The notes beneath the pieces are model-generated. The model saw nothing but the letters and a program-made list of their open reading frames with translations, was not told the DNA's origin and made no database searches. Positions 7,603-22,314 of a DNA stretch of 32,000 bases are shown here, piece after piece. The stretch spans positions 5,634 through 37,633 of the forward strand of contig CAZECW010000018.1 of NCBI GenBank assembly GCA_964510585.1, written 5' to 3'. Position numbers and translations under genes: made by a program. Source of the DNA: an uncultured archaeon. GTDB taxonomy: Archaea; Asgardarchaeota; Jordiarchaeia; Jordiarchaeales; Jordiarchaeaceae. The stretch's first letter is position 1. The number at the start of each line of letters is the position of its first letter.

Positions 7603-8964
7603 CTAAAAATTTTCTGCGCCTACTTGGAATATTTGGTAAGCTCTGTAGGGTTCTCGGTCGGTTATCTCTCCACACAGGTTGGTGGTCATTTGTTCATATA
7701 TTTCCTTCATATTTTTTGTGTGTCCTAATACGTAGATTAGTTTTACATAGGCGGTTTCGGGCAACATGTTTTTGCAAGGAATAACTCCAATTTTAAGTAG
7801 GTCTCTTCCCCGTTCATACACGTTCATACCTACGAATCCAAAGAGGCACTGGGAAGTCATGGCTACAGGAATATCTTCCTCCACTGCCCTTTTTAAAGGT
7901 TCTATAATTGTTTTGGGACAGTGCCCCAAACCGGTTCCTGCTAAAACAATCCCATGATATTTTAAGTCTATGAGTTTATGAATAATATCTCCATCCATTC
8001 CGGGATAAGTGTATATCAGCGCCACTCTGGGGTCAAGTTGGGTGTCTAATTTAACTTCGCCTTTCTTAACTCTTTTCCTGTAATCATTTCTAATTATTTT
8101 TATTTCATTATCCTTCACCAAACCTATGGGAATATCTGCAATTGTACGAAAAGCATCCCGTCTGCTGGTGTGCATCTTTCTAACTCTGGTGCCTCTATGA
8201 ATCAAGTTATAGTCGTCGCTGCTACTTCCATGCATACATACAACTACCTCAGCTATATCGCTAAACGCAGCCACTCTGGCCGCAGAGATTAAATTTATCG
8301 CCGCATCACTTGAGGGCCGGTCACTGCTCCTCTGGCTGCCAACTAGAACTACTGGAACTGGCAAATCATTTAACATAAATGACAGGGCTGAAGAGGTGAA
8401 ATGCATAGTATCAGTACCGTGGGGAATGATGACTCCGTCCGCACCTGAGTTTATCTCTTCAGCAACAGTTTCCGCGATTTTTATCCAGTTGTTCGGTGTC
8501 ATATCTTCTGAAAATATTTCGAATAAGAGTTTTGTTTTCAGATTGCAGATTTCTGCAAGTTCGGGAACCGCACTAAAAAGCTCTTGTGGAGTAAAAGCGG
8601 GAATAACAGCTCCGGTTCTGTAATCGAGTCTGCTCGCCACAGTTCCGCCAGTGCCAATCAGAGAGACTTTGGGTTTCTTGGGATCAAACTCAACTTGTAT
8701 TTCGGGAATGGCGTAAAGTCCTGGCTTGTAGCCTAATTCTTTAATTTTTGTGTCTTCTGTGACTCTCACACCTATATTGTATCCAGTATCTAGTTTGAGG
8801 ACTAGGTGCTTATCATCACCCATATCACTTCTTGGGAGTAGTATCCCTCGGTATGTTGCTTCGGGGGTAATTACTTCGATTTCGCTCCAAATTCTAACTT
8901 TAGCGGTCTCAAGTTTTTTCCTAACAAATCCCCAGTATCCTTGCAGCTCCTCCTTTACCGTCAT
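7603..8964 (-). CDS. gatD: Glu-tRNA(Gln) amidotransferase subunit D
   Basis: KLDTGYNIG N-domain plus asparaginase-like TGGTVASRLDY, HGTDT and SQRSSDRPSSD motifs. Start overlaps the gatE stop (ATGA). Confidence 0.97.
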   Translation of the reverse strand: MTVKEELQGYWGFVRKKLETAKVRIWSEIEVITPEATYRGILLPRSDMGDDKHLVLKLDTGYNIGVRVTEDTKIKELGYKPGLYAIPEIQVEFDPKKPKVSLIGTGGTVASRLDYRTGAVIPAFTPQELFSAVPELAEICNLKTKLLFEIFSEDMTPNNWIKIAETVAEEINSGADGVIIPHGTDTMHFTSSALSFMLNDLPVPVVLVGSQRSSDRPSSDAAINLISAARVAAFSDIAEVVVCMHGSSSDDYNLIHRGTRVRKMHTSRRDAFRTIADIPIGLVKDNEIKIIRNDYRKRVKKGEVKLDTQLDPRVALIYTYPGMDGDIIHKLIDLKYHGIVLAGTGLGHCPKTIIEPLKRAVEEDIPVAMTSQCLFGFVGMNVYERGRDLLKIGVIPCKNMLPETAYVKLIYVLGHTKNMKEIYEQMTTNLCGEITDREPYRAYQIFQVGAENF

Positions 8965-10916
8965 TGTTTTCCCTCCAATATTTTTACTATTTTTTTACGG
9001 AGAACTTCAGCCACTACTTTTCCGTCAATTTTGCCTCTTACCTTTTCCATCACTTTGCCCATCATGGGACTAAACGCCCTATCCCCACTTTTTTCTATAA
9101 AGTCCCTGCTTTCATAGAGCATCTCGTCGATTATTTTTTCAAGTTTCTCAACTGTAATGGTTTCCAACCCTAATTCTTTAAGGGCGTCACTGACACTAAT
9201 TGAGGGGGATTTCGCTAGTTCTTGTAGAATGTTTTCCACTGCTTCTTTTGCTATTTTTCCTTCTGATAGAAATTTGAAAACATCTTTAATTTTTTCTTCG
9301 GAGATATTGTCTGTTCGGAAGCCCTCCCTCTCCAGAGATTTCATGGTTTGAAGCAAGGTTACAACAACAATTGTTGGATCTATTTTGTATTTCTCGACGA
9401 TATCCATAAACAATTCCATTTTCCCTGACGCCATTAATTCTTCTACGAACTCTTCTTTTATCTTGTACTTTTCAGCAAGGCGTTTCTGAGCCACCCAAGG
9501 ATATTCAGGTAACCTCTTACTAATTGCTGCAACCCTTTCCTTTTCTATGACCAATGGGGGGGTATCTGTATCGGGATATAAACGCGCCCCGCCATGTAAC
9601 TCTCTTAAAAATTCACTGTTACCATTTTCTAACGCTCTCCTAGTTTCCCTCATCACGCCCTTCAGGGCGCCCTTAGCCCTATCAACAACATTCTCCAAGG
9701 CCTTTTCCGCCGTGTCCGCATCACCTATAACGATTGCGTAAGCATCCATTTCCCCCAGTGCAAGAAGATCACGTATCTGGGAGTTCTCCTCCGCACTGAT
9801 GTTATATTTGCTGAGGTTTTCATCAGAGTGAATGATGCCTTTTAAACCAGTGATTATCATAACTTTCTCTGCTATTTCTTTTCCAAAACTCTTCCCTGGC
9901 TGAATCTCTTTAGATAAAAGTCCCGCGAATTTTGGAAGTTTTACCGCTAATACGGTTTCATTAGCCTTCCTATTTTTGATAATCTTACATTTGGTGGAGG
10001 CGAAAATCTGGGAAACATCTTTAAAATCTTTAGAGAAGTCCGTTTCCTTCACACCACGATTCAACAACTGATTCTTAATATCAATTAGTGCAAGTTGTCT
10101 CAGTACTTCATTCTCAGCCAGTTTAGGTATCCAATCCAATTTTTGTACTCCTTTAATTTCCACACGCTCTCCGCCCTCTATACTCACATTTAAATCCTGC
10201 CTAATGGTTCCGAGCCCCCTCTTAACCTTCCCTGTCGCCCTGAGAAGCATTCCTATCCTGTAAGCTACTTTGAGAAGCTCTTCTGGATTTTTAATTTCAG
10301 GCGCCGTAACAACTTCAACCAGAGGTATACCTAATCTATCAACCCTGTAATAAACAGTGCTTTGCTCCTCACGGATTTTCCTAGCCGCATCCTCCTCTAT
10401 ACAAATAGTAGCTACTCCAACCTTCCTACCATTAATTGGAATGTAGCCCTCTGTTCCAATAATTAATGTACGCTGAAATCCACAAGGAACTGACCCGTCA
10501 AGATAATTTTTGCGAAGGACATGTAACTCGTCTATAATCTTTGCATTAAACAATAGGGCAATTTCTATACCTATATCTATTGCTTCCTGAGATATGCTAA
10601 AAGGAGGAGTTTAATGCTTGTATGCGTCCTACATACAAGTTTCATCTATCTCGTAAGTACAATTAACATCATCAAATCCTTCATAAACAATTGTACGCCC
10701 CTTTTCATACTCAACAAGCATTGCTTCGTCATACTTACCCATCTCGCCCAAAACAGGTCTAAAGAATCTTTTAACCAGAAACTGTGGTTCATCGGTCTTC
10801 AGAACAGGTTTACAGAAGCAAAAAAGTTTGCGACTGGTTAAAAGCTCCTGGTGAATCTCGATCCCGGCCTTGAATCCCAGTTTATCATAGTCGAGTTGTA
10901 TTGCGACCACCTCCAT
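8961..10916 (-). CDS. gatE: Glu-tRNA(Gln) amidotransferase subunit E, interrupted by a 30-nt intron; join(10641..10916, 8961..10610)
   Basis: ORF 10629..10931 (DYDKLGFKAGIEIHQEL..KLFC) and ORF 8961..10553 (RK..DGS..GFQRT, YRVDRLGIPLVEV, GGARLYPDTD) share one frame. Removing 10611..10640 gives ...YEIDETPPFSISQEA... and about 640 aa. Start is ATG 10916 or ATA 10901. Confidence 0.93.
10611..10640 (-). other. BHB-type mRNA intron in gatE (30 nt)
   Basis: mRNA reads GAUG-AA^A-CUUGUAUG-UAGGACG-CAUACAAG-CAUU-AA^A-CUC. The 4-bp helix is GAUG/CAUU, both bulges are AAA, and the intron stem is 8 bp. Cutting after the 2nd bulge nucleotide removes exactly 30 nt, including in-frame UAG and UAA. Confidence 0.88.
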
Positions 10917-11089
10917 TTTTGGAGTTTTCAAATTATTAGTAGATTATAGCAATATTAATAATACCCTTTACCTCATAAGAATGTATCATTCTAAAAACAT
11001 TTTCCTTAGAAAAATTCAAAGTATTTATAACTAATTTTGTAACTTAGTCAAATTAACACTCTAACTATCAGCCAAGGTGATAAAAATTC

Positions 11090-12697
11090 TTGAAGACACC
11101 AGAACCCTCTCAAACATGGAAAACGGCAGCTTACAGCGAAATAATTAAGCAAATTCTAAATAATAGGGAAAAAGGCTTAGAGCTAAACATATTGAAAAAA
11201 AGGGTTTGCCAAAAGTACCACCTAAATAAGGTTCCCAGTAACTCAGAAATTCTCAGTTACGCCTCGGAACAGGAAAGACAACTTTTACTACCTTTACTTC
11301 AAAAAAAGAAGGTACGTACAATTTCAGGTATTGCAGTAGTAGCGGTAATGTCCAAGCCTGCTCCCTGTCCCGGCAAATGCATCTACTGTCCGGGTGGTAC
11401 TATTGCACCAAAGTCCTACTCGGGACAAGAGCCTGCAGCCATGAGAGCTATTCAAAATAACTTTGACCCCTACTTACAAGTGAAATCCCGGCTTGAACAG
11501 CTAAAAGCCATAGGCCACAAAGTGGACAGGGGAAAAATTAAGCTAATAGTGATGGGAGGAACTTTTCTCTCTCTCCCACAAGACTATCAACACTATTTTG
11601 TACGTAGATGCCTTGAAGCAATAACTGGCGTCCCCTCTGAAACTTTGGAGGAAGCAAAAAGAAATGCTGAGCATTCCCGCATAAGAAATATAGGAATAAC
11701 CTTCGAGACCCGACCCGATTATTGTAGAGAAGAAAATGTTGATAATATGCTTAACATGGGTGGCACCCAAGTTGAGATAGGTGTTCAAACAGTTTATGAT
11801 GATATTTACAAGCTTGTTAACAGGGGCCACACAGTACAAGAGGTGGTGAAGGCCTTCAGGATAGCTAAAGATGCAGGCCTTAAAGTAACAGCACACTTAA
11901 TGCCAAATCTCCCGGGAACCAATTATGAGAGAGATTTGGATATGTTTAAAACGGTTTTTAATGATCCGAGGTTCAAGCCAGACGGCCTCAAGATATATCC
12001 CTGCTTGGTGCTTAAAGATACACCTCTCTATGATTTATATCTTAAAGGGGAGTATAGCCCTTACCCCACGGAAGACGTTATCAAGCTCATTGCTGAAGTC
12101 AAAAGAATAATTCCAAAATGGATCCGTATCCAACGTATTCAAAGGGATATCCCCTCAAAATTAATTGTCTCAGGTGTAAAGAGCGGTAATCTAAGAGAAC
12201 TAGTTGCTGACGAGCTAACCAGAAGAGGATATAAGTGCCAGTGCATTAGATGCAGAGAAGTGGGCCATATATTAAGAAAAAATAATAATATTTTAGATGT
12301 GGACGAGGTAGTTTTGCACACTGAGAGGTACTCCGCTTCTGAAGGCGAAGAAGTTTTCATATCCTACGAAGATAAAGATAGAAATATTTTAGTTGGATTT
12401 TTAAGACTCCGCCGCCCCTCACCTTTAGCCCATAGGCCAGAGATTCAGAATTGTGAATCAATGATTATTAGAGAATTACACGTCTACGGTCCACTAGTGC
12501 CCGTCCGTGAAAAACCAAATGATGAGTGGCAACACCGAGGATACGGCAAAAGGTTACTTAGTTTAGCAGAAAAAATTGCTAGGGAGGAATATGATGCCAA
12601 AAAGATTCTAGTCCTCTCCGGCATAGGCGTTAAAGAGTACTATTATAAACTAGGATACAAACCAGACGGAGTCTACGTTTCAAAAATGTTAAATTAA
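11090..12697 (+). CDS. elp3: Elp3-family tRNA U34 carboxymethyltransferase (radical SAM + KAT/GNAT domains)
   Basis: CPGKCIYCPGG radical SAM motif, MGGTF, ETRPD, DGLKIYP, RELHVYG, QHRGYGKRLL; TTG start after AGGTGA. Confidence 0.96.
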   Translation: MKTPEPSQTWKTAAYSEIIKQILNNREKGLELNILKKRVCQKYHLNKVPSNSEILSYASEQERQLLLPLLQKKKVRTISGIAVVAVMSKPAPCPGKCIYCPGGTIAPKSYSGQEPAAMRAIQNNFDPYLQVKSRLEQLKAIGHKVDRGKIKLIVMGGTFLSLPQDYQHYFVRRCLEAITGVPSETLEEAKRNAEHSRIRNIGITFETRPDYCREENVDNMLNMGGTQVEIGVQTVYDDIYKLVNRGHTVQEVVKAFRIAKDAGLKVTAHLMPNLPGTNYERDLDMFKTVFNDPRFKPDGLKIYPCLVLKDTPLYDLYLKGEYSPYPTEDVIKLIAEVKRIIPKWIRIQRIQRDIPSKLIVSGVKSGNLRELVADELTRRGYKCQCIRCREVGHILRKNNNILDVDEVVLHTERYSASEGEEVFISYEDKDRNILVGFLRLRRPSPLAHRPEIQNCESMIIRELHVYGPLVPVREKPNDEWQHRGYGKRLLSLAEKIAREEYDAKKILVLSGIGVKEYYYKLGYKPDGVYVSKMLN

Positions 12698-12822
12698 ACC
12701 GCTCCATTTTCTTTAGAGAACTCTCTGCAAAAACTTATCTTAGTATCTTTGCTTTACATTAGATCTTCAGGGGAAAGGTTCTTCTACCCAATTTTTCACT
12801 GTGCAGCAGGTAAAGAAGGTAT

Positions 12823-13191
12823 TCACTTTAGCTCAGACACTTTTTTCGCTATGTCATTAATCAAGTCCTTCGCGTTTCCCGGATCAATTATACTTGCAGC
12901 CGCAGAGGGAACATCTATACCTGCGGCAATGCCAATCTGTTCTTTGCTGTGAACATATACATAGGGAATTTTCTTTTCCTCACATAGCAATGGCAAATGT
13001 GCTACTACTTCGGGAGGATCTACATCCTCCGCCAGAATAACTAATTTAGCTTGCCCACGTTCAATGGTCTTAGTCGTCTCATTTGTGCCCTTTTTAATCT
13101 TACCGGTATCACGCGCAATCTCCAATGCTTGCAAAGCCTTTTTAACCAGTTCTTCTGGAACTTGGAATCTCACATAAAAGGGCTTCGACAA
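12823..13191 (-). CDS. rpl7ae: Ribosomal protein L7Ae (K-turn-binding protein)
   Basis: [48 protein letters not shown]; TTG start 8 nt after GGAGG. Confidence 0.98.
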
Positions 13192-13199
13192 CAGTCATT

Positions 13200-13230
13200 C
13201 CTCCTTCAGGCAGCGCCCTCATCATATGGT
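13200..13230 (-). promoter_or_regulatory. Box C/box D K-turn-like motif in the rpl7ae 5' leader
   Basis: Minus strand reads CCAU-AUGAUGA-GGGCGCUGC-CUGA-AGGAGG. Box C is at 13219-13225 and box D at 13206-13209, directly abutting the Shine-Dalgarno. Confidence 0.55.
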
Positions 13231-13365
13231 GGGGCTTCGCTTTTTTTGATTTTTAATGAGAAACAAGTTAACATACTTGGCTTATGAAATTTTTGGTTCA
13301 GGAGCATTTTTCACAAACTTAGGTTGAACCGCATCCCTTATTCAGTTGATTTTTCTCAGAAATAG

Positions 13366-13881
13366 TTAATCAGATAGGAATTTAAGAACCTCGTTAAATG
13401 CAATTTTAAACCACACAGTATATTTTTCGGGATGTTTTTCCACATTTTTTTTAAGGGTTTTCACATTCACCCATTTATAATCTTCTGCCTCCATTGGATT
13501 TACTTCAACTTTTCCATCATAATTACCAACAAAAACATGATCAAACTCATATTCCGTAAGATTATGATCAAGATTAGCCTTATATATAAAAGCGAATATT
13601 TTTTTCAAATCACAATCAAAGCCCATTTCTTCTTTTAGTCTTCTATGAGCAGCTTGTTCCGTGTCTTCGCCGGGTCTCGGATGACTACAACAGGTATTTG
13701 ACCACAGACCACCAGAATGATATTTACTTTTAGCCCGTTTTTGGAGAAGAGTTTCCCCCTTGGAGTTGAAAACAAATATGGAAAAAGCGCGGTGTAATCT
13801 CCCTTCTTCGTGTATTCTCATCTTTTCCCCAGTACCTATCTCGTTATCATTCTGATCCACAAGGATTACCATTTCACTCAT
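13366..13881 (-). CDS. idi: Isopentenyl-diphosphate delta-isomerase, type 1 (Nudix fold)
   Basis: LHRAFSIFVFN, WSNTCCSHP (catalytic Cys), EYEFDH and YTVWF motifs of IDI-1. Confidence 0.94.
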   Translation of the reverse strand: MSEMVILVDQNDNEIGTGEKMRIHEEGRLHRAFSIFVFNSKGETLLQKRAKSKYHSGGLWSNTCCSHPRPGEDTEQAAHRRLKEEMGFDCDLKKIFAFIYKANLDHNLTEYEFDHVFVGNYDGKVEVNPMEAEDYKWVNVKTLKKNVEKHPEKYTVWFKIAFNEVLKFLSD

Positions 13882-14066
13882 ACACCTTGCCTCCTACACA
13901 CCTACACTTTTCTAAACCATTCTTTGATTATGGGGAGAAGTTTTACTGCTAAAATGTATTTTATTATTTTTGAATCTTGTTATTTCATCATTATCTTGTT
14001 TTAAATCTCTCTTTTTGTTTACCTCAAGCCTTTGCTTGCAAGCCTTAAATCATGAGATAATTTAAC

Positions 14067-14873
14067 TCATCTCCGGTTGCATATAAGTGTTCCTAAATCC
14101 TGTTTGCCAAGTAGAGATTGGAGGATGTAACCATCCCTTTTTGCATTAATAATTTCTATTTGAATTCCTTTTTGAGCTAAGGGCAAGATCTCTAATATTT
14201 TACGATGCATGCCTCCCGTAACATCGGTTGTTTTGGATCCCGAAATGTTTTGTAGGGTTTTTTCGATGTTATCTGTAGTAATTGAACGGATTAATACCGC
14301 GTTTCTATTTGTGTTGGGATCAGAATCAAATACTCCATCCACATCGGTTCCAAAAACCACACGTTTAACATTTAAGTTCTGTGCCAAAAATGCCACGATG
14401 TGGTCGCCGGATAATATACTGTGACCTTGTTTTTCATCAAAAACAGCATCACCCCACAGCACCGGTATACAACCCATATCCAGAGCAAATTTCACAGTTT
14501 TAGTATAAATTTCTGATATTTTACCACCGCTCTGAATAGAAATTGCGGAGGGTTGTAGCGGTATGGCAGGCAATCCCAGGCTTTGTAGCTCCTCTACAAG
14601 TATAAAATTTAGTTTACGCATAACCTGAATGGTTTTAGTGAACCCAAATATTTGGTTCCTAGACTTTAAACCCAGATGAATATTGTACTTATTTGCAATC
14701 CTATGTCCGAACGACCCCCCTCCATGAACTAGAACTATTTTCAAATCAGGACTCTGTTTCAAGGCGCTCTCAATTTCTCTACTAATTCTCCTAATGGTTT
14801 TAAAATCAGCTTGCATCTCCCTATCTTTTTTTGTAATAACGCTACCACCCAACTTAAGTATAACAACACTCAT
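14067..14873 (-). CDS. ipk: Isopentenyl phosphate kinase (amino-acid kinase family)
   Basis: KLGGSVIT, VHGGGSFGH, GDAV...SGD, DVTGGM motifs; located next to mvk. ATG at 14873. Confidence 0.92.
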   Translation of the reverse strand: MSVVILKLGGSVITKKDREMQADFKTIRRISREIESALKQSPDLKIVLVHGGGSFGHRIANKYNIHLGLKSRNQIFGFTKTIQVMRKLNFILVEELQSLGLPAIPLQPSAISIQSGGKISEIYTKTVKFALDMGCIPVLWGDAVFDEKQGHSILSGDHIVAFLAQNLNVKRVVFGTDVDGVFDSDPNTNRNAVLIRSITTDNIEKTLQNISGSKTTDVTGGMHRKILEILPLAQKGIQIEIINAKRDGYILQSLLGKQDLGTLICNRR

Positions 14874-14987
14874 CAAAACCTCTCCCTGAAACAATTATTT
14901 TCTATTCAGCACACCTAATTGACGAAGATATTTCTGACTCCAAAATAATTGTAGCAAGTAAACTATCCTTATTTTATACAGATATTT

Positions 14988-15948
14988 CTATTCTACTTTT
15001 ACTCCCTGCTGTGAAAAGTTGGTAATAATGGGTTTACCTCCCGCTTTTAGTATAGCATCCGCTATTTGTTTCTGTTTATCTTCTGAGGAAAGAGCGATCA
15101 TACAGCCTCCTCCGCCCGCGCCTGTTAACTTTGCGCCATACGCTCCATTCTCTCTAGCGGCATTTATTAGTTTGTTAAGCTCAAAAGTGGATACTCCAAT
15201 TGCTTCTAGCAATCCCTGGTTTATGTCCATTAATTCTCCAAGTGCGCGAAAATCATTCTTGTCTAAAAGTTTTAGGCCTTCCATAACAATGAGCCCGATC
15301 GATTTAATAATTGGCTTCATTATTTTTTCTTGCCTTTGCTTTCTTAATCTCACCCTTCCAACCCATTCTGCAGTGCTCCTTTTTATACCTGAGTCCCCAA
15401 TCACAAGGGGAATTTCGGCTTTTATTTTAACCTGCTTCATATTTCCCTTCTCGTAAAGTATTGCGCCACCATAGGTTGCAATTGTGTTGTCGATCCCAGA
15501 AGGGGTTCCATGGACGGTTTTTTCAGCTCCAAAGGCTATACTTGAAATTTCAGAGTTTGACAGATCTAGGTCCAGACAAGCATTCATAGCCGCGGCAGTA
15601 GCTACAGAAACCGCCGCAGAAGAACCCAACCCAGCGCCTGGAGGTATCTCTGATTTTATTGAAATATCGAAGCCTTTATGTAAGCTAGTTAGAGAAGAAA
15701 TCTCCTTGCAAACGGTCCATACTGGTTTGAAAATTTGGGGTAAATGGGGAGGAGGGTGACTTTTATCAATTTTAAACTTTGCCGCCTGATCATATTCCTT
15801 TGAGTAAACTCGAGATATTTTCTCGTCACTCAAATTAACAGATACATAAACACGTTTATCTATAGAAGCCACTAAAGCGGGCTCACCGTAGACAACAGCA
15901 TGTTCACCGAAAAAAAATAACCTTTCCGGGTGCAGAGGCGGTCACCAT
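14988..15948 (-). CDS. mvk: Mevalonate kinase (GHMP family), +1 frameshift in a T8 tract near codon 12
   Basis: ATG 15948 gives MVTASAPGKVI. After A8 at 15910-15917 (+ strand) the next frame continues FGEHAVVYGEPAL...PPGAGLGSSAA...HGTPSGID...GAKLTGAGGGGC. Length is 961 nt (3n+1). Confidence 0.9.
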
Positions 15949-16033
15949 GTTTAACACACCCATAATTAGACGTCGCAAGCCTTCTAAAAATTGTTACTAT
16001 TCAATTAAAATTTAAAATAATAATCAGCACTCA

Positions 16034-16645
16034 TCACTGTCTCCTAACTTTGGCTTCAAATTCTTCTACAGAAACGGGTAGCTGCCCGTCGGGTGGAATT
16101 TCTCCTCTCTCCCTGAGAACTTGCCGGGCTAATAGCCAGTATATTAGAGAGAGAGCTCTACGCCCCTTGTTATTGCTTGGAATAACCAAATCAATATTCT
16201 CAGTAGAATTATCGGTATCGCATAAAGCAACAACTGGAATTCTAGCTTTGGCTGCCTCACTCAATGCCTGTGAATCAGCCCTAGGATCAGTAAGCATTAT
16301 AACATCTGGCTCAATATATCTGTCGAAAGACGGATTAGTGAATGTTCCCGGAATGAATCTTCCCGCAATTGTATTAGCATGAATTATGCTGCTAAACTTG
16401 CGTACTGGTCTTTGACCATACTGTCTAGCTGACACGACGGCTATTCGGGCAGGTTCAAATCTCGCTAAAAAGCGACCGCCAATTCTTATTCTCTCATCTG
16501 TTTTTCGGATGTCGAGAACATAAAGTCCATCAGACCTTACTCGGTAGATGAAGGGCTCCATGCTCTTCGTTTTGACCTGAGTTCCAATATGGACACCCGC
16601 AGCTAGATACTTATCCAATGGGATTAGCAGTTCCGGCTCAGACAT
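16034..16645 (-). CDS. rps2: 30S ribosomal protein S2 (uS2)
   Basis: [32 protein letters not shown]. Confidence 0.98.
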
Positions 16646-16720
16646 TACTTAACACGCTCTAAATCGTGATTTGATTTTGATGTCTAGTCAAATAAATTTT
16701 AAACCTAAAAATTTTGTGGA

Positions 16721-16921
16721 TTAGGTATGTTGACTAAAGGGAATTACATCATCAATCAGATTAACATGACTTAGTAACATACGTCTACAACAATACCTTG
16801 TAAGTCCCATACTAGTTAAAACGGCATCGGGCGGCTCTCCTTGTCTTACTCTCCTAAGAAACTCTTCCCATTTGTCTCCTACCACTTTTCCACATGTAAA
16901 GCATCTTATGGGTATTATCAT
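16721..16921 (-). CDS. rpoN: DNA-directed RNA polymerase subunit N (Rpo10)
   Basis: [12 protein letters not shown]...[11 protein letters not shown]; ATG at 16921. Confidence 0.97.
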
Positions 16922-17064
16922 AAATCCAATCACCATTAAAAATTTAGGAATACTGACTTTCCCAAGTACACAAGATTATATATAGCTTACCACATTAACA
17001 TTATTTGGTTGATAAGCGAATAAATATGAGACCTCCATAATTTCCTCATCCCAGGGTGGACTGG

Positions 17065-17475
17065 TTACCTATAACTTTTCTGTTCTTTTGCTCGGGCGCC
17101 CCTTCCTCCAGGTTTCTTAGGTTCCTTCCGTCTTGGGTCTGAAACTAGAATTTTTCTATCATACTCTAAAAGTTTTTGTCTTATTTGAGGGTCATCGAAA
17201 TATTGAGTTAAGGCCTTCGAGATGGAGGTTCTAGCTGCTTCCGCTTGGCTAATCACTCCTCCACCCTTCACAGTAACATCTATGTCAACTTTATTATATA
17301 AATCAGGGCCTACAAGGAGTAAGGGTTCCAGTACCTTTTGGCTAGCTAGAAGCGGTTGCATTAGATTAATGGGGATGTTATTAACTCTAATTTTTCCCGT
17401 ACCAGGTTTTAAGACCGCCCTAGCTATTGCATTTTTTCTTTTTCCACTTGTTAATATTACTACTTTTTTACTCAA
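17065..17475 (-). CDS. rps9: 30S ribosomal protein S9 (uS9)
   Basis: GKRKNAIARA, V.GGG..SQAEA, DPRRKEPKKPGGRGARAKEQKSYR; TTG start. Confidence 0.98.
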   Translation of the reverse strand: MSKKVVILTSGKRKNAIARAVLKPGTGKIRVNNIPINLMQPLLASQKVLEPLLLVGPDLYNKVDIDVTVKGGGVISQAEAARTSISKALTQYFDDPQIRQKLLEYDRKILVSDPRRKEPKKPGGRGARAKEQKSYR

Positions 17476-17491
17476 TATTATTCCTCCAAGA

Positions 17492-18031
17492 TTAGATTCT
17501 GTCAGATGGAGGTACCCATCCTATTTCTCTGGAAAGTGTTTCTACTGTGATGTAGCTAGAGTCCGTTTTTTTGACATGTGCATCAGTAATTGTTTGAGCG
17601 GAAACTTGGCTGTAAAATTCAGGAGTTCCTATGTAAACTCTCAGACGCTTATAGGCTGCTTTTCCTTTAGGTTTCTTCCAAGGGAGCATGCCCCGAATGG
17701 TACGTTTAACTATCCTATCGGGTCTACGATAATGAAAAGGCCCCTTCCAAGGAGCGGTATGTGTTCTGATTTCTAATCTCGATTTATATTTAGATATGAC
17801 TGCGCTTCTCTTGCCAGTAATTACCGCTTTCTCAGCATTAATAATCGCTATTTTTTCGCCTCTCAGCAGGCGATTGGCAACCACACTCGCTAACCTTCCA
17901 AGAATTAGGTTAGTAGCATCAATTACCGCTAAATTTTCGATTGGCAAATAGTCTCTGTTCTTCTTTTCCTTTGGTTTCTTTATCGTTTCTTCCAATTTGG
18001 CCTCTTTTCCCTCTTCTGACATTTCGCTCAC
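17492..18031 (-). CDS. rpl13: 50S ribosomal protein L13 (uL13) with a charged N-terminal extension
   Basis: VIDATNLILGRLAS, RRPDRIVKRTIRGMLP. Start is GTG 18031 or ATG 18022. Confidence 0.96.
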   Translation of the reverse strand: MSEMSEEGKEAKLEETIKKPKEKKNRDYLPIENLAVIDATNLILGRLASVVANRLLRGEKIAIINAEKAVITGKRSAVISKYKSRLEIRTHTAPWKGPFHYRRPDRIVKRTIRGMLPWKKPKGKAAYKRLRVYIGTPEFYSQVSAQTITDAHVKKTDSSYITVETLSREIGWVPPSDRI

Positions 18032-18035
18032 TCAT

Positions 18036-18401
18036 CTATTTGATTATTTTCACCTTAGTACCGGAAGGGTTTCTTTTAATGAGCTCTTGAATGGTTATGC
18101 ATTCCCCTCCGGATTTTTTAGTTTTGTTGACAGCCTCTTCAGAGAAGGATAATGCTGCTATGCAAACCTTATGTTCTAGCTCTCCTGAACCTAAAACCTT
18201 TCCAGGCACTAGAACTGTATCATCATTGACGGTGTGTCTATTAATTTGGGACAAGTTTACAGAGGTTCTGTTCCTTCTAGGTTTTCTTAACTCTTCTGAG
18301 ACTCTTTTCCATATCTTACTTTTCTCTGATTTTGATTTTTTCTCGAGTTCAACTATTAATTTCCAAATTTCGGGATTTGTGGGTCCTGTTGTTTTAGGCA
18401 A
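18036..18401 (-). CDS. rpl18e: 50S ribosomal protein L18e
   Basis: TNP..., VNLSQINR, VLVPGKVLGSG, FSEEA. TTG at 18401, 7 nt after GGAGG. Confidence 0.95.
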   Translation of the reverse strand: MPKTTGPTNPEIWKLIVELEKKSKSEKSKIWKRVSEELRKPRRNRTSVNLSQINRHTVNDDTVLVPGKVLGSGELEHKVCIAALSFSEEAVNKTKKSGGECITIQELIKRNPSGTKVKIIK

Positions 18402-18450
18402 CTTTAGGCCTCCGCTTTTTATTGTATCTTTCAAAGCAAATATGGGCTTT

Positions 18451-19245
18451 TTAGGCGAGCAGTGATTGAAGTTGTTTAACCTTTTTCTCAAATATCTCTA
18501 CAGCAGTTTCTACAATTTTTTCTGGAGGGAGAGCACCAGTAGATTCGATACTAAATATGAAGGAGGAGTCATCCGCATCAACGTGAATGGCGTCAAATTC
18601 ACATTTTTCTTCGCATGACTTACACAGAGAACAATTTAAAACATCCTTAATCACTATTGATTTATTTTTCAGATCCAAAACACCCTTTGGGCAAATTGTT
18701 ACGCATTCACCACAAGCTTCACATTTATCTCCCTCAAGTTGTACAATGGGCTTGTACTTGTAAGCACATGTAGAAACCGGTTGGTATTTTGCATGGTCTT
18801 TACCTTGACCGAGAGAAGCGTAAGCTTCCAGCACTATACGTTGCCCCCGAGCCAAACGAACAATTGGGATTTTATCACTAACGGGAACCACTGAGGGATC
18901 TTGAGATTTCAAGTCTCCAGAATAAACCGTCACACCCTCTTCTTCCGCCTCCCTCTCAAGCGTGAAAGTTAGCTGACACTGTGTGCAACCAGCTCCCTGA
19001 CAACTGCATTCTTCCGGTAAAACATAATTCTCTAAATCGGTCTTAAGAGGAATGAGACCCAAACGGTGTGCAAGAATTTCATCAAATAGAGGAGACGTAT
19101 TCTCAATAATAATGACTTCTTCGATAGCCATAGTTGGCACTTCGGCTAAGATAATACGCCTTAAGGCATTGGCAAACGCTACATCAACATTTTCAAGCAG
19201 GAACCTTAGATTATTCGTGTCCTTAGATAATATTCGTATATTCAT
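18451..19245 (-). CDS. rpoD: DNA-directed RNA polymerase subunit D (Rpo3) with a ferredoxin-like Fe-S insert
   Basis: ANALRRIILAEVP, DEILAHRLGLIPL, GKDHAKYQP, CEACGECVTICP and CSLCKSCEEKC. Confidence 0.98.
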   Translation of the reverse strand: MNIRILSKDTNNLRFLLENVDVAFANALRRIILAEVPTMAIEEVIIIENTSPLFDEILAHRLGLIPLKTDLENYVLPEECSCQGAGCTQCQLTFTLEREAEEEGVTVYSGDLKSQDPSVVPVSDKIPIVRLARGQRIVLEAYASLGQGKDHAKYQPVSTCAYKYKPIVQLEGDKCEACGECVTICPKGVLDLKNKSIVIKDVLNCSLCKSCEEKCEFDAIHVDADDSSFIFSIESTGALPPEKIVETAVEIFEKKVKQLQSLLA

Positions 19246-19385
19246 AATCACACCAACGAGCTACGTCAAAGTTGAATAAAAATGATGCTCAACCTTAGCA
19301 AGCATGAGTAAACAACATATGAAATTATAATATAAAGGTACTTGGTCTACACTTAAGATCTCGAGCTGAAATAAATAACTAATTT

Positions 19386-19787
19386 TTAGACCCTCCGACC
19401 ACGTCGACCTCCTGGTCTACGTGTGCCGTCATGTGGATACGGAGTTACCTCTTCGATTCGCCCAATTCTCAATCCAGCCCTAGCCAAGGCACGTATTGCT
19501 GCTTGAGCTCCCGGCCCCGGTGTTTTGGGACCATGTCCACCTGGTGCTCTGACATAAATGTGTATTGCTGTGATACCCTTATCCATAGCTGCTTGCGCTG
19601 CTCTGTAAGCTGCTTGCATAGCAGCGTAGGGGGAGGACTCGTCCCGATCAGCTTTTACAATCATACCTCCTGAGTAACGCGCAATTGTTTCAGCACCGGA
19701 AATGTCCGTTATGTGAACTATGGTATCATTATAAGAGGAGTATATGCGAGCAATACCCCAATGAGGTTTTTTGGATTTTTCACTCAT
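19386..19787 (-). CDS. rps11: 30S ribosomal protein S11 (uS11)
   Basis: [35 protein letters not shown]. Confidence 0.98.
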
Positions 19788-19813
19788 TTTTCATTCCCCT
19801 CAATTCAAATATA

Positions 19814-20341
19814 TTATCCTTCAACTTTAGTTTTGACGCGTTCAGGATGGTTGGGGTCGCTTAGCGGTGAAGAAGGAGCGAAGGACACCAAAGTCTCTTC
19901 CTCTCTAGTTACTAAGTATCCCGGCGAAGTTACGCGTCTATTATCTATTGCTATGTGTCCATGTGTTATAAGTTGCCTTGCATGATAAATGGATTTGGAC
20001 AACCCCAACTTATTAACTATAGTCTGTAACCGCCTACCTAATATGTCCTCAATGTTAAGTTTGAGAACGTCATCCAAGGAAGCTTCATGATTTAGTATCC
20101 CTAAACGGTTAAGTCTTCCCACCAATAATTTTCTTGATTTTTCTTGTTCCTCGTCGGGAAGAGCGAGGCAGCGTCTAGCTTGATCCCTAAAGTTGCTAAG
20201 CATAGTGCTTGCTCGCCATATCTCTCTCTTATTTCTTAAACCATACTTACCTATGAGAATTAGTTCACTGTGGATTCTATCCTTCTGGAAAGGATGCCTT
20301 GGAGTCTTGTACTTCTTTCTATGTCTTTTGGGATCACCCGT
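19814..20341 (-). CDS. rps4: 30S ribosomal protein S4 (uS4); probable ACG start at 20341
   Basis: GDPK...Y.TPRHP, YGLRNKREIW, RRLQTIV, ARQLITHGHI. The family-typical MGDP is encoded ACG-GGT-GAT-CCC after GAGGTGA; an in-frame GTG at 20350 lies inside the SD. Confidence 0.95.
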   Translation of the reverse strand, partial: TGDPKRHRKKYKTPRHPFQKDRIHSELILIGKYGLRNKREIWRASTMLSNFRDQARRCLALPDEEQEKSRKLLVGRLNRLGILNHEASLDDVLKLNIEDILGRRLQTIVNKLGLSKSIYHARQLITHGHIAIDNRRVTSPGYLVTREEETLVSFAPSSPLSDPNHPERVKTKVEG

Positions 20342-20357
20342 TTCAATCACCTCAAGT

Positions 20358-20810
20358 CTACTTTTTCTTTCTCCTTACACCCACGGTTTGACCTTTACGT
20401 CCCGTAGTTTTGGTGTGCTGTCCTCTTACCTTGAGTCCTAAGGCGTGACGTATGCCCCTGTAACTCTTCATTTTTCTCATATCATCAATGTCGGTTTTAA
20501 TGGCTAAAGTGAGATCTGAACCAGTGAGATGTAAATATTCACCTGAACTTATGTCCTTTTGTCGATTAACCATCCATTTGGGAATGCCATATTTTACGGG
20601 GTTAGCTAAAACCTCCTCAATTTTTCTAACATCTTGATCCGAAATAAACCCCATTCTAATGTTAGGATCAAGCCCAACAACCCGTATTATGGACTCCGCT
20701 AACCTGATACCCACTCCTTTAATTCCAGTCAAAGCGTAGGCTAGCTTTTTTGAACCGTCCAAATCTGTACCAGCAACTCGAACAAGATAACGGTACTCTT
20801 CCGACGACAA
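20358..20810 (-). CDS. rps13: 30S ribosomal protein S13 (uS13)
   Basis: ALTGIKGVG, SYRGIRHALGLKVRGQHTKTTGRKG; TTG start. Confidence 0.98.
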   Translation of the reverse strand: MSSEEYRYLVRVAGTDLDGSKKLAYALTGIKGVGIRLAESIIRVVGLDPNIRMGFISDQDVRKIEEVLANPVKYGIPKWMVNRQKDISSGEYLHLTGSDLTLAIKTDIDDMRKMKSYRGIRHALGLKVRGQHTKTTGRKGQTVGVRRKKK

Positions 20811-21035
20811 TTGTAAACACTCCTTATTAGGGAATCAAAAACAACAAAACACCAAATAAACTTTACGTACAGCATTTAACAGCAAAAAACAGTAAAACCA
20901 ATAAAAAAATAAATATATCGCCCATTTTCACAGAAAACAAATAAATATTCTAAGAACTCTAAACTAAAAGGTAGCTAAAATTCACAAAAATTGAGAAAAA
21001 TGTTAAAATGAAGATGCCGGGGTAACCAAGTGGAT

Positions 21036-21055
21036 CACGTTATAGGCGTACAAAA
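21036..21055 (+). other. tRNA intron 1 (D-loop, 18-20 nt, relaxed BHB; exact ends uncertain)
   Basis: The D-loop is about 18-20 nt too long and contains an ACG/CGU hairpin. Two relaxed BHB registers fit: 21036..21055 or 21037..21054. Confidence 0.7.
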
Positions 21056-21064
21056 ACGGTGCAG

Positions 21065-21089
21065 ATACTTACTAGTGTAGTTAGCACAA
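21065..21089 (+). other. tRNA intron 2 (anticodon stem, position 29/30, 25 nt)
   Basis: GUGC-AG^A...GCAC-AA^G forms a perfect 4-bp helix with two 3-nt bulges. Removal makes CAG+GC = CAGGC, complementary to GCCUG. Confidence 0.88.
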
Positions 21090-21097
21090 GCCTGGAG

Positions 21098-21109
21098 AAT
21101 ATCCTAGTA
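21098..21109 (+). other. tRNA intron 3 (canonical position 37/38, 12 nt)
   Basis: CUGG-AG^A-AUAUC-CUAG-UA^A; helix CUGG/CUAG. Removal restores a 7-nt anticodon loop. Confidence 0.88.
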
Positions 21110-21143
21110 AGCCTGTGGTCCGAAAGGATCGCGCGAGTTCGAA

Positions 21144-21171
21144 AGGAAAATATTTATTATTTACCCGAGTG
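21144..21171 (+). other. tRNA intron 4 (T-loop, position 59/60, 28 nt)
   Basis: UUCG-AA^A-GG...CC-CGAG-UG^U; helix UUCG/CGAG flanked by the T-stem. Removal restores UUCGAAU. Confidence 0.9.
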
Positions 21172-21263
21172 TCTCGCCCCCGGCGCCAATAACTACCCTT
21201 TTCAGTGGCCGGAACATATTTTGACTTGTTAAAACTAGGTAGGAATAACTGGATTTTGGATGC

Positions 21264-22314
21264 TTATTCCTCAGCTTCCTCGCTTCTGTCGTGTTTTTTC
21301 CACATAGGAGGGTAGGTTCCCGGCTCCATTAAGACACGGTTTATTTCCACTGCAACCCCGTGGTTTGAGGTGTACATTTCTTGACTGCTCATTTTTGCTA
21401 TTCCCAATGCTACAGCTTCATTTTTAAGCGTGAAGATTGAAACTAGATCACCAGCTTTTATTTCGCTCTCTAGTTTAACTATTCCAGGAGCGGTTAGATT
21501 TGCACCGTGACAAAGAGAATCTACGGCAGAGTCTCGTATAAAAATTTTAGGTATATGCTCCAGTGCATTTTCCATTGGTTGTATAATTTTTCTTAGGAAT
21601 GATTCGTCTCCATCTTCCTTCCAGAAATGGTAAGCATCAACGAGGTCGTATAGGTTTGTTATAGTATCTTCTTTGAAAGGCCCTGTTCGGGTGCGTCTGA
21701 GTTCTCTCATATGGGCGCCACAACCTAAAACCTCGCCGATGTCGTGGCAGAGCTTCCTTATGTAGGTGCCGGCCTCACAACCAACACGCAGGAGCCCATT
21801 TCTACCCTCTACTTCGTTTAGTTCAATATAGTATATTTCCCTAATCCTCACCCTCCTTTTAACCGAGGAGCGGAGCGGTGGACGCTGATAAATTTGTCCC
21901 GCAAACTCGTTTACAACTTCTCTCAATCTACTTTCAGACACATCCCCGTGCAGCCGAATTACACAAACATACTCTTTCCCAGCCGGAAGGAGAGCTTGAA
22001 CTACTTTAGTTGCAGATTCTAAAGCCACAGGAAGCACACCTGTGACTTTGGGATTTCACTGCCTCCTATGCTTCTGAAGGAAGCTCTAGTGTCCCAGCGT
22101 GGCCTGCCTTCTTAACATTCAAGATTTTTTTGACCCAGCTAACCACTTCATGTGAAGTGGGACCCGGAGGCTTGTCAATATTGACTATCCCGTTTTTTAT
22201 ATAATCTTCTATTTGACGTTCGTTGGGTGGAGTTCCATACTCCGGATTAGTGACCACGTTAGCCTTCTGGAGCATCTCTCTTTTCTTGTCGCTGGGTAAA
22301 AAACGCTCGACCAT
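21264..22314 (-). CDS. cbf5: Cbf5 H/ACA RNA-guided / tRNA psi55 pseudouridine synthase, with a 31-nt intron; join(22086..22314, 21264..22054)
   Basis: ORFs 22066..22314 ([19 protein letters not shown]) and 21264..22037 ([16 protein letters not shown] domain) join as [18 protein letters not shown] after intron removal; 339 aa. Confidence 0.96.
22055..22085 (-). other. BHB mRNA intron in cbf5 (31 nt)
   Basis: GGGA-CACU-AG^A-GCUUCCU-(10-nt loop)-AGGAGGC-AGUG-AA^A-UCCC is a full hBHBh' motif. It splits the GAU codon of the catalytic Asp and contains an in-frame UAG. Confidence 0.95.

Follow-up and report, generated by a model that had tools for sequence, protein, structure and literature searches.

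Introduction

Among the closest described counterparts of the elements studied here is the bulge-helix-bulge (BHB) intron in the cbf5 pre-mRNA of Crenarchaeota, known from Aeropyrum, Sulfolobales and Desulfurococcales (Watanabe 2002; Yokobori 2009; PMC2738675). In 2020 crenarchaeal cbf5 was stated to be the only archaeal gene with such an intron inside its coding region (PMC7714728), and our literature search found neither later reports of coding-region introns, nor papers on Asgard mRNA introns, nor a published intron in gatE. For tRNA genes, heavy interruption has already been published: introns are borne by 92-95% of the tRNA genes in complete Freyarchaeia and Atabeyarchaeia genomes (PMC11291895), and tRNA genes have been reported to bear 2.2 inserts each, with as many as five in a single gene and with weak-motif inserts concentrated in the D-arm (preprint 10.64898/2026.10.13.758758). 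Here we analyse a 32,000-nt stretch of an Asgard archaeal genome of the Jordarchaeia/Freyarchaeia (contig C18:5634-37633 of a 3.78-Mb assembly in 217 contigs; hereafter the window), in which six short inserts interrupt three genes: one insert in gatE and one in cbf5, both on the minus strand, and four in a tRNA-Ser(GGA) gene on the plus strand.

We consider these inserts to be ordinary archaeal BHB introns that are, as far as the evidence goes, removed constitutively and form part of a lineage-wide load, a reading to which we give a probability of about 0.8. Each transcript is predicted to fold so that a 4-bp helix, made of four exon and four intron bases, lies between two 3-nt bulges. A two-subunit EndA, one subunit catalytic and one structural, would then cut after the second base of each bulge and RtcB would ligate the exons, whereby the gatE and cbf5 frames and the tRNA-Ser cloverleaf would be restored. 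Within this load, nearly all tRNA genes of Jordarchaeia and Freyarchaeia are interrupted, and at least a dozen protein genes with varied functions would carry an intron. If so, gatE is a second gene with a BHB intron in its coding region, conserved with covariation across a whole Asgard class, and the cbf5 intron is found in Asgard archaea at the identical codon position, with RNA evidence of its removal. Taken together with the other interrupted genes of this genome, this would make mRNA splicing without a spliceosome commonplace in some of the archaea most closely related to eukaryotes.

Introns in the gatE and cbf5 coding regions

As read directly from the window, gatE appeared as two open reading frames (ORFs) in one frame (10931-10629 and 10553-8961), which carry opposite ends of the GatB_N domain. 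The RNA around the break folds with a central helix GAUG/CAUU, AAA in both bulges and an inner helix of 9 bp. At the 3' end the site is of the relaxed kind, the AAA bulge lying opposite AUA in a 3x3 internal loop. Excision after the second base of each bulge joins GAU GAA|ACU CCU to give ..YEIDE|TPPF.., and the exons so joined aligned without gaps against 10 orthologues.

Each of the 11 class genomes has the insert at the same site; together they span two families and 58-100% GatE identity. Its length there is 29, 30, 31 or 35 nt, both bulges are invariably AAA, and for the inner helix there are four versions of unrelated sequence. Across the class, GAUG/CAUU in the central helix gives way to GAUG/CAUC and this to GACG/CGUC, so that a synonymous change of the exon Asp codon from GAU to GAC is matched by a change in the intron from CAUC to CGUC. 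Overall, 97.7% of the cells in the gatE structure alignment were paired and 7 of 13 pairs had changed on both sides (10 genomes); none of 500 shuffles did as well, and structures slid along the alignment paired at 11-53%. The single-fold energy z-scores were weak, at -1.8 for gatE and -0.9 for cbf5; the case for the mRNA introns rests on covariation and not on folding energy. Beyond the class, gatE is uninterrupted in families f16 and f19. In family f13, likewise an intron-rich Asgard family, gatE is interrupted 5 nt further upstream than in Jordarchaeia, at GCA G|AC GAA (L064 in G041, L066 in G021), which points to intron sliding or to an independent gain near the same spot.

In cbf5 the two raw ORFs lie in different frames (22314-22066 with DKCLD; 22037-21264 with TruB_N, TruB_C_2 and PUA), the 31-nt intron shifting the frame. 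Here the motif is strict: GGGA/UCCC forms the outer helix and CACU/AGUG the central one, the bulges are AGA and AAA, and the inner helix has 7 bp. Excision joins CUA G|AU CCC to give GHAGTL-D-PKVTG, again gap-free against orthologues. The intron falls after the first letter of the catalytic Asp codon, which is the published crenarchaeal position (PMC2738675). All 11 class genomes carry the insert at this one site, at 27-35 nt, and covariation was similarly marked: pairing stood at 95.2%, two-sided changes had occurred in 6 of 15 pairs, and none of 500 shuffles reached this level. In both genes the bulges are invariant across the class, and the insert lengths are often not multiples of three. 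The first-pass annotation of this stretch had called for a look at sister genomes, and there both introns kept their sites throughout the class.

RNA evidence of removal came from an RNA-Seq metatranscriptome, X20, in which a contig with a depth of 16.7 joins 22053 to 22085 and skips 31 nt. The junction has a 1-nt ambiguity that fits 22055-22085, and its shorter side is 31 letters long. The X20 contigs listed are about 93-99% identical to the window. DNA contigs from X14, X16 and X3 cross the cbf5 site with the intron kept. Because every DNA relative that is equally close or further keeps the intron, we read the skip as spliced cbf5 mRNA. The coordinates of the three genes and their inserts are collected in Table 1.

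Table 1. Interrupted genes in the window, their inserts and gatD (window coordinates)
Feature	Position	Strand	Description and evidence
gatE exon 1	10641..10931	-	97 codons, start of GatB_N; ORF and Pfam match
gatE intron	10611..10640	-	30 nt, in frame, TAG and TAA; fold, same site in class, covariation
gatE exon 2	8961..10610	-	GatB_N, GAD, GatB_Yqey; Pfam
gatD	7603..8964	-	GatD_N and asparaginase domains; Pfam
cbf5 exon 1	22086..22314	-	DKCLD domain (Pfam); ends GHAGTL and G of Asp codon
cbf5 intron	22055..22085	-	31 nt, in-frame TAG; fold, covariation, RNA contig skip
cbf5 exon 2	21264..22054	-	TruB_N, TruB_C_2, PUA; Pfam
tRNA-Ser(GGA) gene	21016..21188	+	173 nt, encoded CCA, four inserts; ARAGORN on spliced forms
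D-loop insert	21034..21054	+	about 18-21 nt, ends uncertain (start 21034-21036)
tRNA 29/30 intron	21065..21089	+	25 nt; motif scan
tRNA 37/38 intron	21098..21109	+	12 nt, canonical position, bulge-helix-loop type; motif scan
tRNA 59/60 (T-loop) intron	21144..21171	+	28 nt, strict BHB; fold and scan

Two readings without splicing have to be set against these data. The inserts might be translated or bypassed, by selenocysteine or pyrrolysine recoding or by ribosome hopping: recoding of stop codons has been reported for this lineage, and some relatives have a 30-nt gatE insert with a single in-frame TAG or TGA. The gatE insert of the window has two stops, however, and the frame is shifted by the 29-, 31- and 35-nt gatE inserts of relatives and by the 31-nt cbf5 insert. 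Moreover, it is the RNA structure that is conserved and not the peptide, and RNA lacking the cbf5 insert exists, so that we hold recoding or bypass to be very improbable. The appearance of gatE and cbf5 as two ORFs each could also suggest pseudogenes, split genes or errors of assembly. Yet 11 genomes and independently assembled metagenomes share these inserts, and conservation of the exons on either side is strong. The break in cbf5 falls within the codon for the catalytic Asp, so that the two halves of the gene could not function separately, and a cbf5 match (E <= 1e-40) was obtained in 238 of the 251 Asgard genomes of a phylum-wide scan. We give this explanation even less credence than recoding.

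In the same 251 genomes, families f13, f16 and f19 showed a short open frame ahead of cbf5 exon 2, a hint of the same break. In f13 the break was confirmed by sequence, with inserts of 41 nt. The cbf5 intron was absent, with GTLDP uninterrupted, in 17 other Asgard loci that were read. Its distribution in Asgard archaea is thus patchy: sequences confirm it for f13 and for the two families of the class, and it is suggested in f16 and f19. Compared with the crenarchaeal intron, the one described here shares the gene, the codon position, the BHB motif, a similar size and a host with two-subunit EndA, and differs in that its host is an Asgard archaeon.

The shared position in cbf5 could have been inherited from a common ancestor, or introns could have been gained repeatedly at a site predisposed to them. 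On the exon side, the central helix of either mRNA consists of invariant codons (D-E in gatE, T-L in cbf5), and the cbf5 exons pair with each other through GGGA/UCCC. Judged from these sequences, such exon sites may be predisposed to receive an intron, which could explain the common cbf5 position without common descent. A further possibility, to which we give a low probability, is that the intron in the Asp codon may predate the split between Asgard and TACK archaea. If this were true, the archaeal lineage ancestral to eukaryotes would have possessed an intron in an mRNA.

An interrupted tRNA-Ser(GGA) gene

Neither ARAGORN nor Rfam saw a tRNA in the raw window. After removal of all four inserts ARAGORN called tRNA-Ser(GGA) at every tested boundary of the D insert, and no tRNA was called by ARAGORN when the D insert was left in. 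The acceptor stem is perfect, and syntenic copies of the gene are present in five relatives.

The 59/60 intron has an outer helix GCGAG/CUCGC, a central helix UUCG/CGAG, and bulges AAA and UGU; besides the cbf5 intron, it is the only insert with the strict BHB motif. Four central pairs and at least one flanking helix are found in the gatE intron and in the 29/30 and 37/38 introns of the tRNA. In the 29/30 intron the central helix is GUGC/GCAC with bulges AGA and AAG, and removal forms the anticodon stem CAGGC/GCCUG; in the congeners G006 and G007 this helix reads GCGC/GCGU, changing together with the D-stem. The 37/38 intron shows CUGG/CUAG with bulges AGA and UAA; it is 11 nt long in two relatives, and the DNA contig of a relative has a 1-nt deletion at 21100. 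In total, a BHB or relaxed BHB fold was recognized in five of the six inserts of the window, the D-loop insert being without a clean motif in this genome.

For the D-loop insert, no canonical BHB was found here, the best central helix being GUGG/GUAC with three of four pairs. In G006 and G007, read by hand, the central helix is GUGG/CCGC or GUGG/CCAC, with a predicted canonical 7-nt D-loop. An alternative excision at 21029-21044 (UAAC/GUUA), of better geometry, was rejected: it removes the conserved AAGUGG and is not kept in G006 or G007.

The tRNA-Ser genes of G006 (L038) and G007 (L037) stand beside cbf5 and contain the D-loop, 29/30 and 37/38 inserts, and their T-arm is intact. The 59/60 intron, missing there, has accordingly been gained or lost within the genus. 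Four near-identical genomes showed variable columns at 1 of 84 exon positions versus 14 of 86 intron positions (Fisher p = 6e-4), and the single variable exon column is compensated in the variable arm.

In these respects the gene resembles the multiply interrupted tRNA genes of Freyarchaeia and Atabeyarchaeia and of Thermoproteales. The D-loop, 29/30, 37/38 and 59/60 inserts all have parallels there; as in Freyarchaeia and Atabeyarchaeia, the D-arm insert has a weak motif and is missed by standard callers, and the T-loop intron varies within the genus, which fits recent gain or loss. There is no essential difference, and tRNA-Ser(GGA) is a further example of a known pattern, a tRNA with four introns being normal for this lineage. 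With its intron option on, ARAGORN reported only 6 tRNAs in the whole 3.78-Mb genome, several of them doubtful, and standard callers are close to blind to the tRNA set of this genome.

Splicing enzymes and other interrupted genes

The genome encodes two EndA paralogues, with ORFs of 192 and 198 amino acids. The first keeps the Tyr, His and Lys residues and has as its best match 3p1z_B, the catalytic subunit of the Aeropyrum pernix heterotetramer (E = 3e-45), a match that includes the loop segment GQPL..KP. The second lacks the catalytic His. From sequence, EndA is therefore of the two-subunit, crenarchaeal-like kind, with one predicted catalytic and one predicted structural subunit. This architecture is tied to non-canonical introns (PMC5829648), and it bears out the earlier expectation of an EndA type that would fit relaxed motifs.

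There is a single rtcB gene in the genome (C58:3702-5036, locus L073). One TGA falls within its Pfam match, inside a 30-nt in-frame insert between D and AHQGYGFP, and the insert has BHB geometry with a central helix CCCG/CGGG and bulges ACA and AAG. The splicing ligase would hence itself need splicing. BHB-type inserts were also read in ahcY (TKWE|FDN) and ppsA (AED|LPGASF), and an AIRS/selD-like gene has an insert of BHB geometry where its Pfam domain is split at profile positions 50 and 56. The first-pass annotation had supposed that other apparently split genes in this genome might prove to contain introns, as these four do. It had also raised the idea of micro-introns spreading from tRNAs into mRNAs, with which the inserts in further protein genes are consistent. 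A 28-nt candidate at C180:1143 (about 1290-1320, L075), with ACGG/CCGU and AAA/AAA bulges, stays unverified; neither of its flanking ORFs (274 and 191 amino acids) matches a Pfam family.

A de novo census was attempted by scanning the 3.78-Mb genome, with strict and with tolerant settings, for sites of BHB geometry at which excision would fuse two long ORFs. Filters were applied for longest ORF and bulge composition, and junctions with a Shine-Dalgarno sequence and start codon were removed. A mirrored-geometry control was as productive each time (4088 versus 4161, 1051 versus 1098, 199 versus 170, and 86 versus 72), and the signal was swamped by operon junctions. True cases were missed, ahcY through a mismatch in the inner helix and rtcB through its short inner helix. 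As a consequence of the control-level matches and the missed cases, we do not claim a genome-wide intron count.

Each of the six inserts in the window is present once in the genome: when the six introns were compared with the whole genome by short-word BLAST, they matched only themselves, giving no sign of copying between introns. They lie where the earlier annotation had placed them and are, as it had said, 12-31 nt long and mutually unrelated. The five clean introns all begin with A, the third base of the bulge, and three of the five end in AA, again as described before.

Several points weigh against the reading of ordinary, constitutively spliced BHB introns. The 3' site of gatE is unclean and the D-loop insert lacks a motif, and both would need a permissive enzyme. 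For cbf5, removal from RNA is seen in a single contig, assembled from a related population, and not in reads from this strain. No RNA run was listed as containing the gatE/gatD stretch, and the contigs of X20 neither bridge the gatE intron nor cover the tRNA, so that cbf5 is the sole case covered by RNA. Constitutive splicing is an assumption, and minor unspliced forms would be hidden in contigs. With these points taken into account, we infer that cutting by EndA and joining by RtcB would act on all three transcripts, and that gatE and the tRNA are probably spliced in vivo as cbf5 is. The introns described here offer natural substrates with which to probe the reach of a permissive EndA. Gene callers split or truncate genes interrupted in this way, and annotation, metabolic reconstruction and estimates of completeness need models that are aware of introns.

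Does splicing gate expression?

The concentration of six introns in three tRNA-related genes had suggested at first that splicing might gate the production of enzymes that charge and modify tRNAs. In this explanation the capacity of EndA and RtcB would limit the output of GatE, of GatD by translational coupling, of Cbf5 and of tRNA-Ser. Some features of the locus are in keeping with it. Both mRNA introns carry in-frame stops, as noted at the outset (TAG and TAA in gatE, TAG in cbf5), so that unspliced mRNA yields only short fragments. The gatD start overlaps the gatE stop as ATGA (8961-8964), an overlap already read in the first-pass annotation, which suggests coupled translation; it is a reasonable inference from this arrangement that failed gatE splicing would be polar on gatD. 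Finally, with the sole rtcB gene carrying a TGA in its BHB-type insert, a feedback loop is conceivable.

Splicing of mRNA at paired stem-loops without a spliceosome is also known from eukaryotic HAC1/XBP1, where it changes the reading frame and, in animals, ends in ligation of the RtcB type. There Ire1 cuts in place of the tRNA endonuclease, and the process is clearly stress-regulated; for the introns studied here no regulation was seen. A further comparison is HVO_1309 of Haloferax volcanii (PMC7714728), an mRNA with an EndA substrate whose removal seems to be needed for expression. That intron is located in the 5' untranslated region, outside the coding sequence, and it stands alone in a species in which introns are few.

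Against such a gate, spliced cbf5 is the only RNA form seen, and no condition-dependent splicing was observed. Genes unrelated to tRNA (ahcY, ppsA and the AIRS/selD-like gene) are interrupted as well, and detection favours highly conserved genes, so that the apparent bias towards tRNA biology is uncontrolled. No function has been reported for the cbf5 intron, which was already known in 2002 (PMC7714728). Proximity is also within chance: taking about 13 flagged intron-bearing genes in 3.78 Mb, about 0.5 pairs are expected within 11.5 kb (78 x 23/3782). The neighbourhood is a standard ribosomal and RNA-polymerase cluster, and the grouping of the three genes is accounted for by this conserved cluster together with the genome-wide intron load. 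The proposal of a splicing gate is thus not supported by these data, and we consider it unlikely. A wider version is equally doubtful, in which EndA and RtcB form a cell-wide checkpoint, the mRNA of the ligase needs ligation, and gatE/gatD and cbf5 would yield protein only once the capacity for splicing surpasses a very large load of pre-tRNA. If true, it would tie the output of the translation machinery to tRNA maturation.

Gene cluster and further observations

The window is a conserved archaeal information-processing cluster of ribosomal and RNA-polymerase genes, with gatE, cbf5 and tRNA-Ser all inside it. Its order is rpoA1/A2, glmS, gatD, gatE, elp3, L7Ae, two kinases, S2 and rpoN, followed by S9, L13, L18e, rpoD, S11, S4, S13, tRNA-Ser, cbf5, cmk, L34e, adk, secY and L15. 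Close relatives are Candidatus Jordarchaeia, Candidatus Freyarchaeota, Ca. Jordarchaeum madagascariense and the complete SRVP19_Freyarchaeia-1 chromosome, and most of the DNA runs that contain this stretch are hot-spring metagenomes.

Two further observations were made in this cluster. In the spacer between rpoN and S9 (window 16922-17067), 144 nt are swapped for 34 other letters in a related population (run X14), and this spacer is a variable intergenic stretch. In the leader of L7Ae (window 13200-13250, minus strand), just upstream of the start at 13191, a box C/D-like pair AUGAUGA...CUGA encloses a short GGGC/GCCU stem and adjoins the GGAGG ribosome-binding site of the gene. Autorepression of L7Ae through a kink-turn is known in other archaea. 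The element in the leader resembles a kink-turn, and it looks like a candidate through which L7Ae could repress its own translation.

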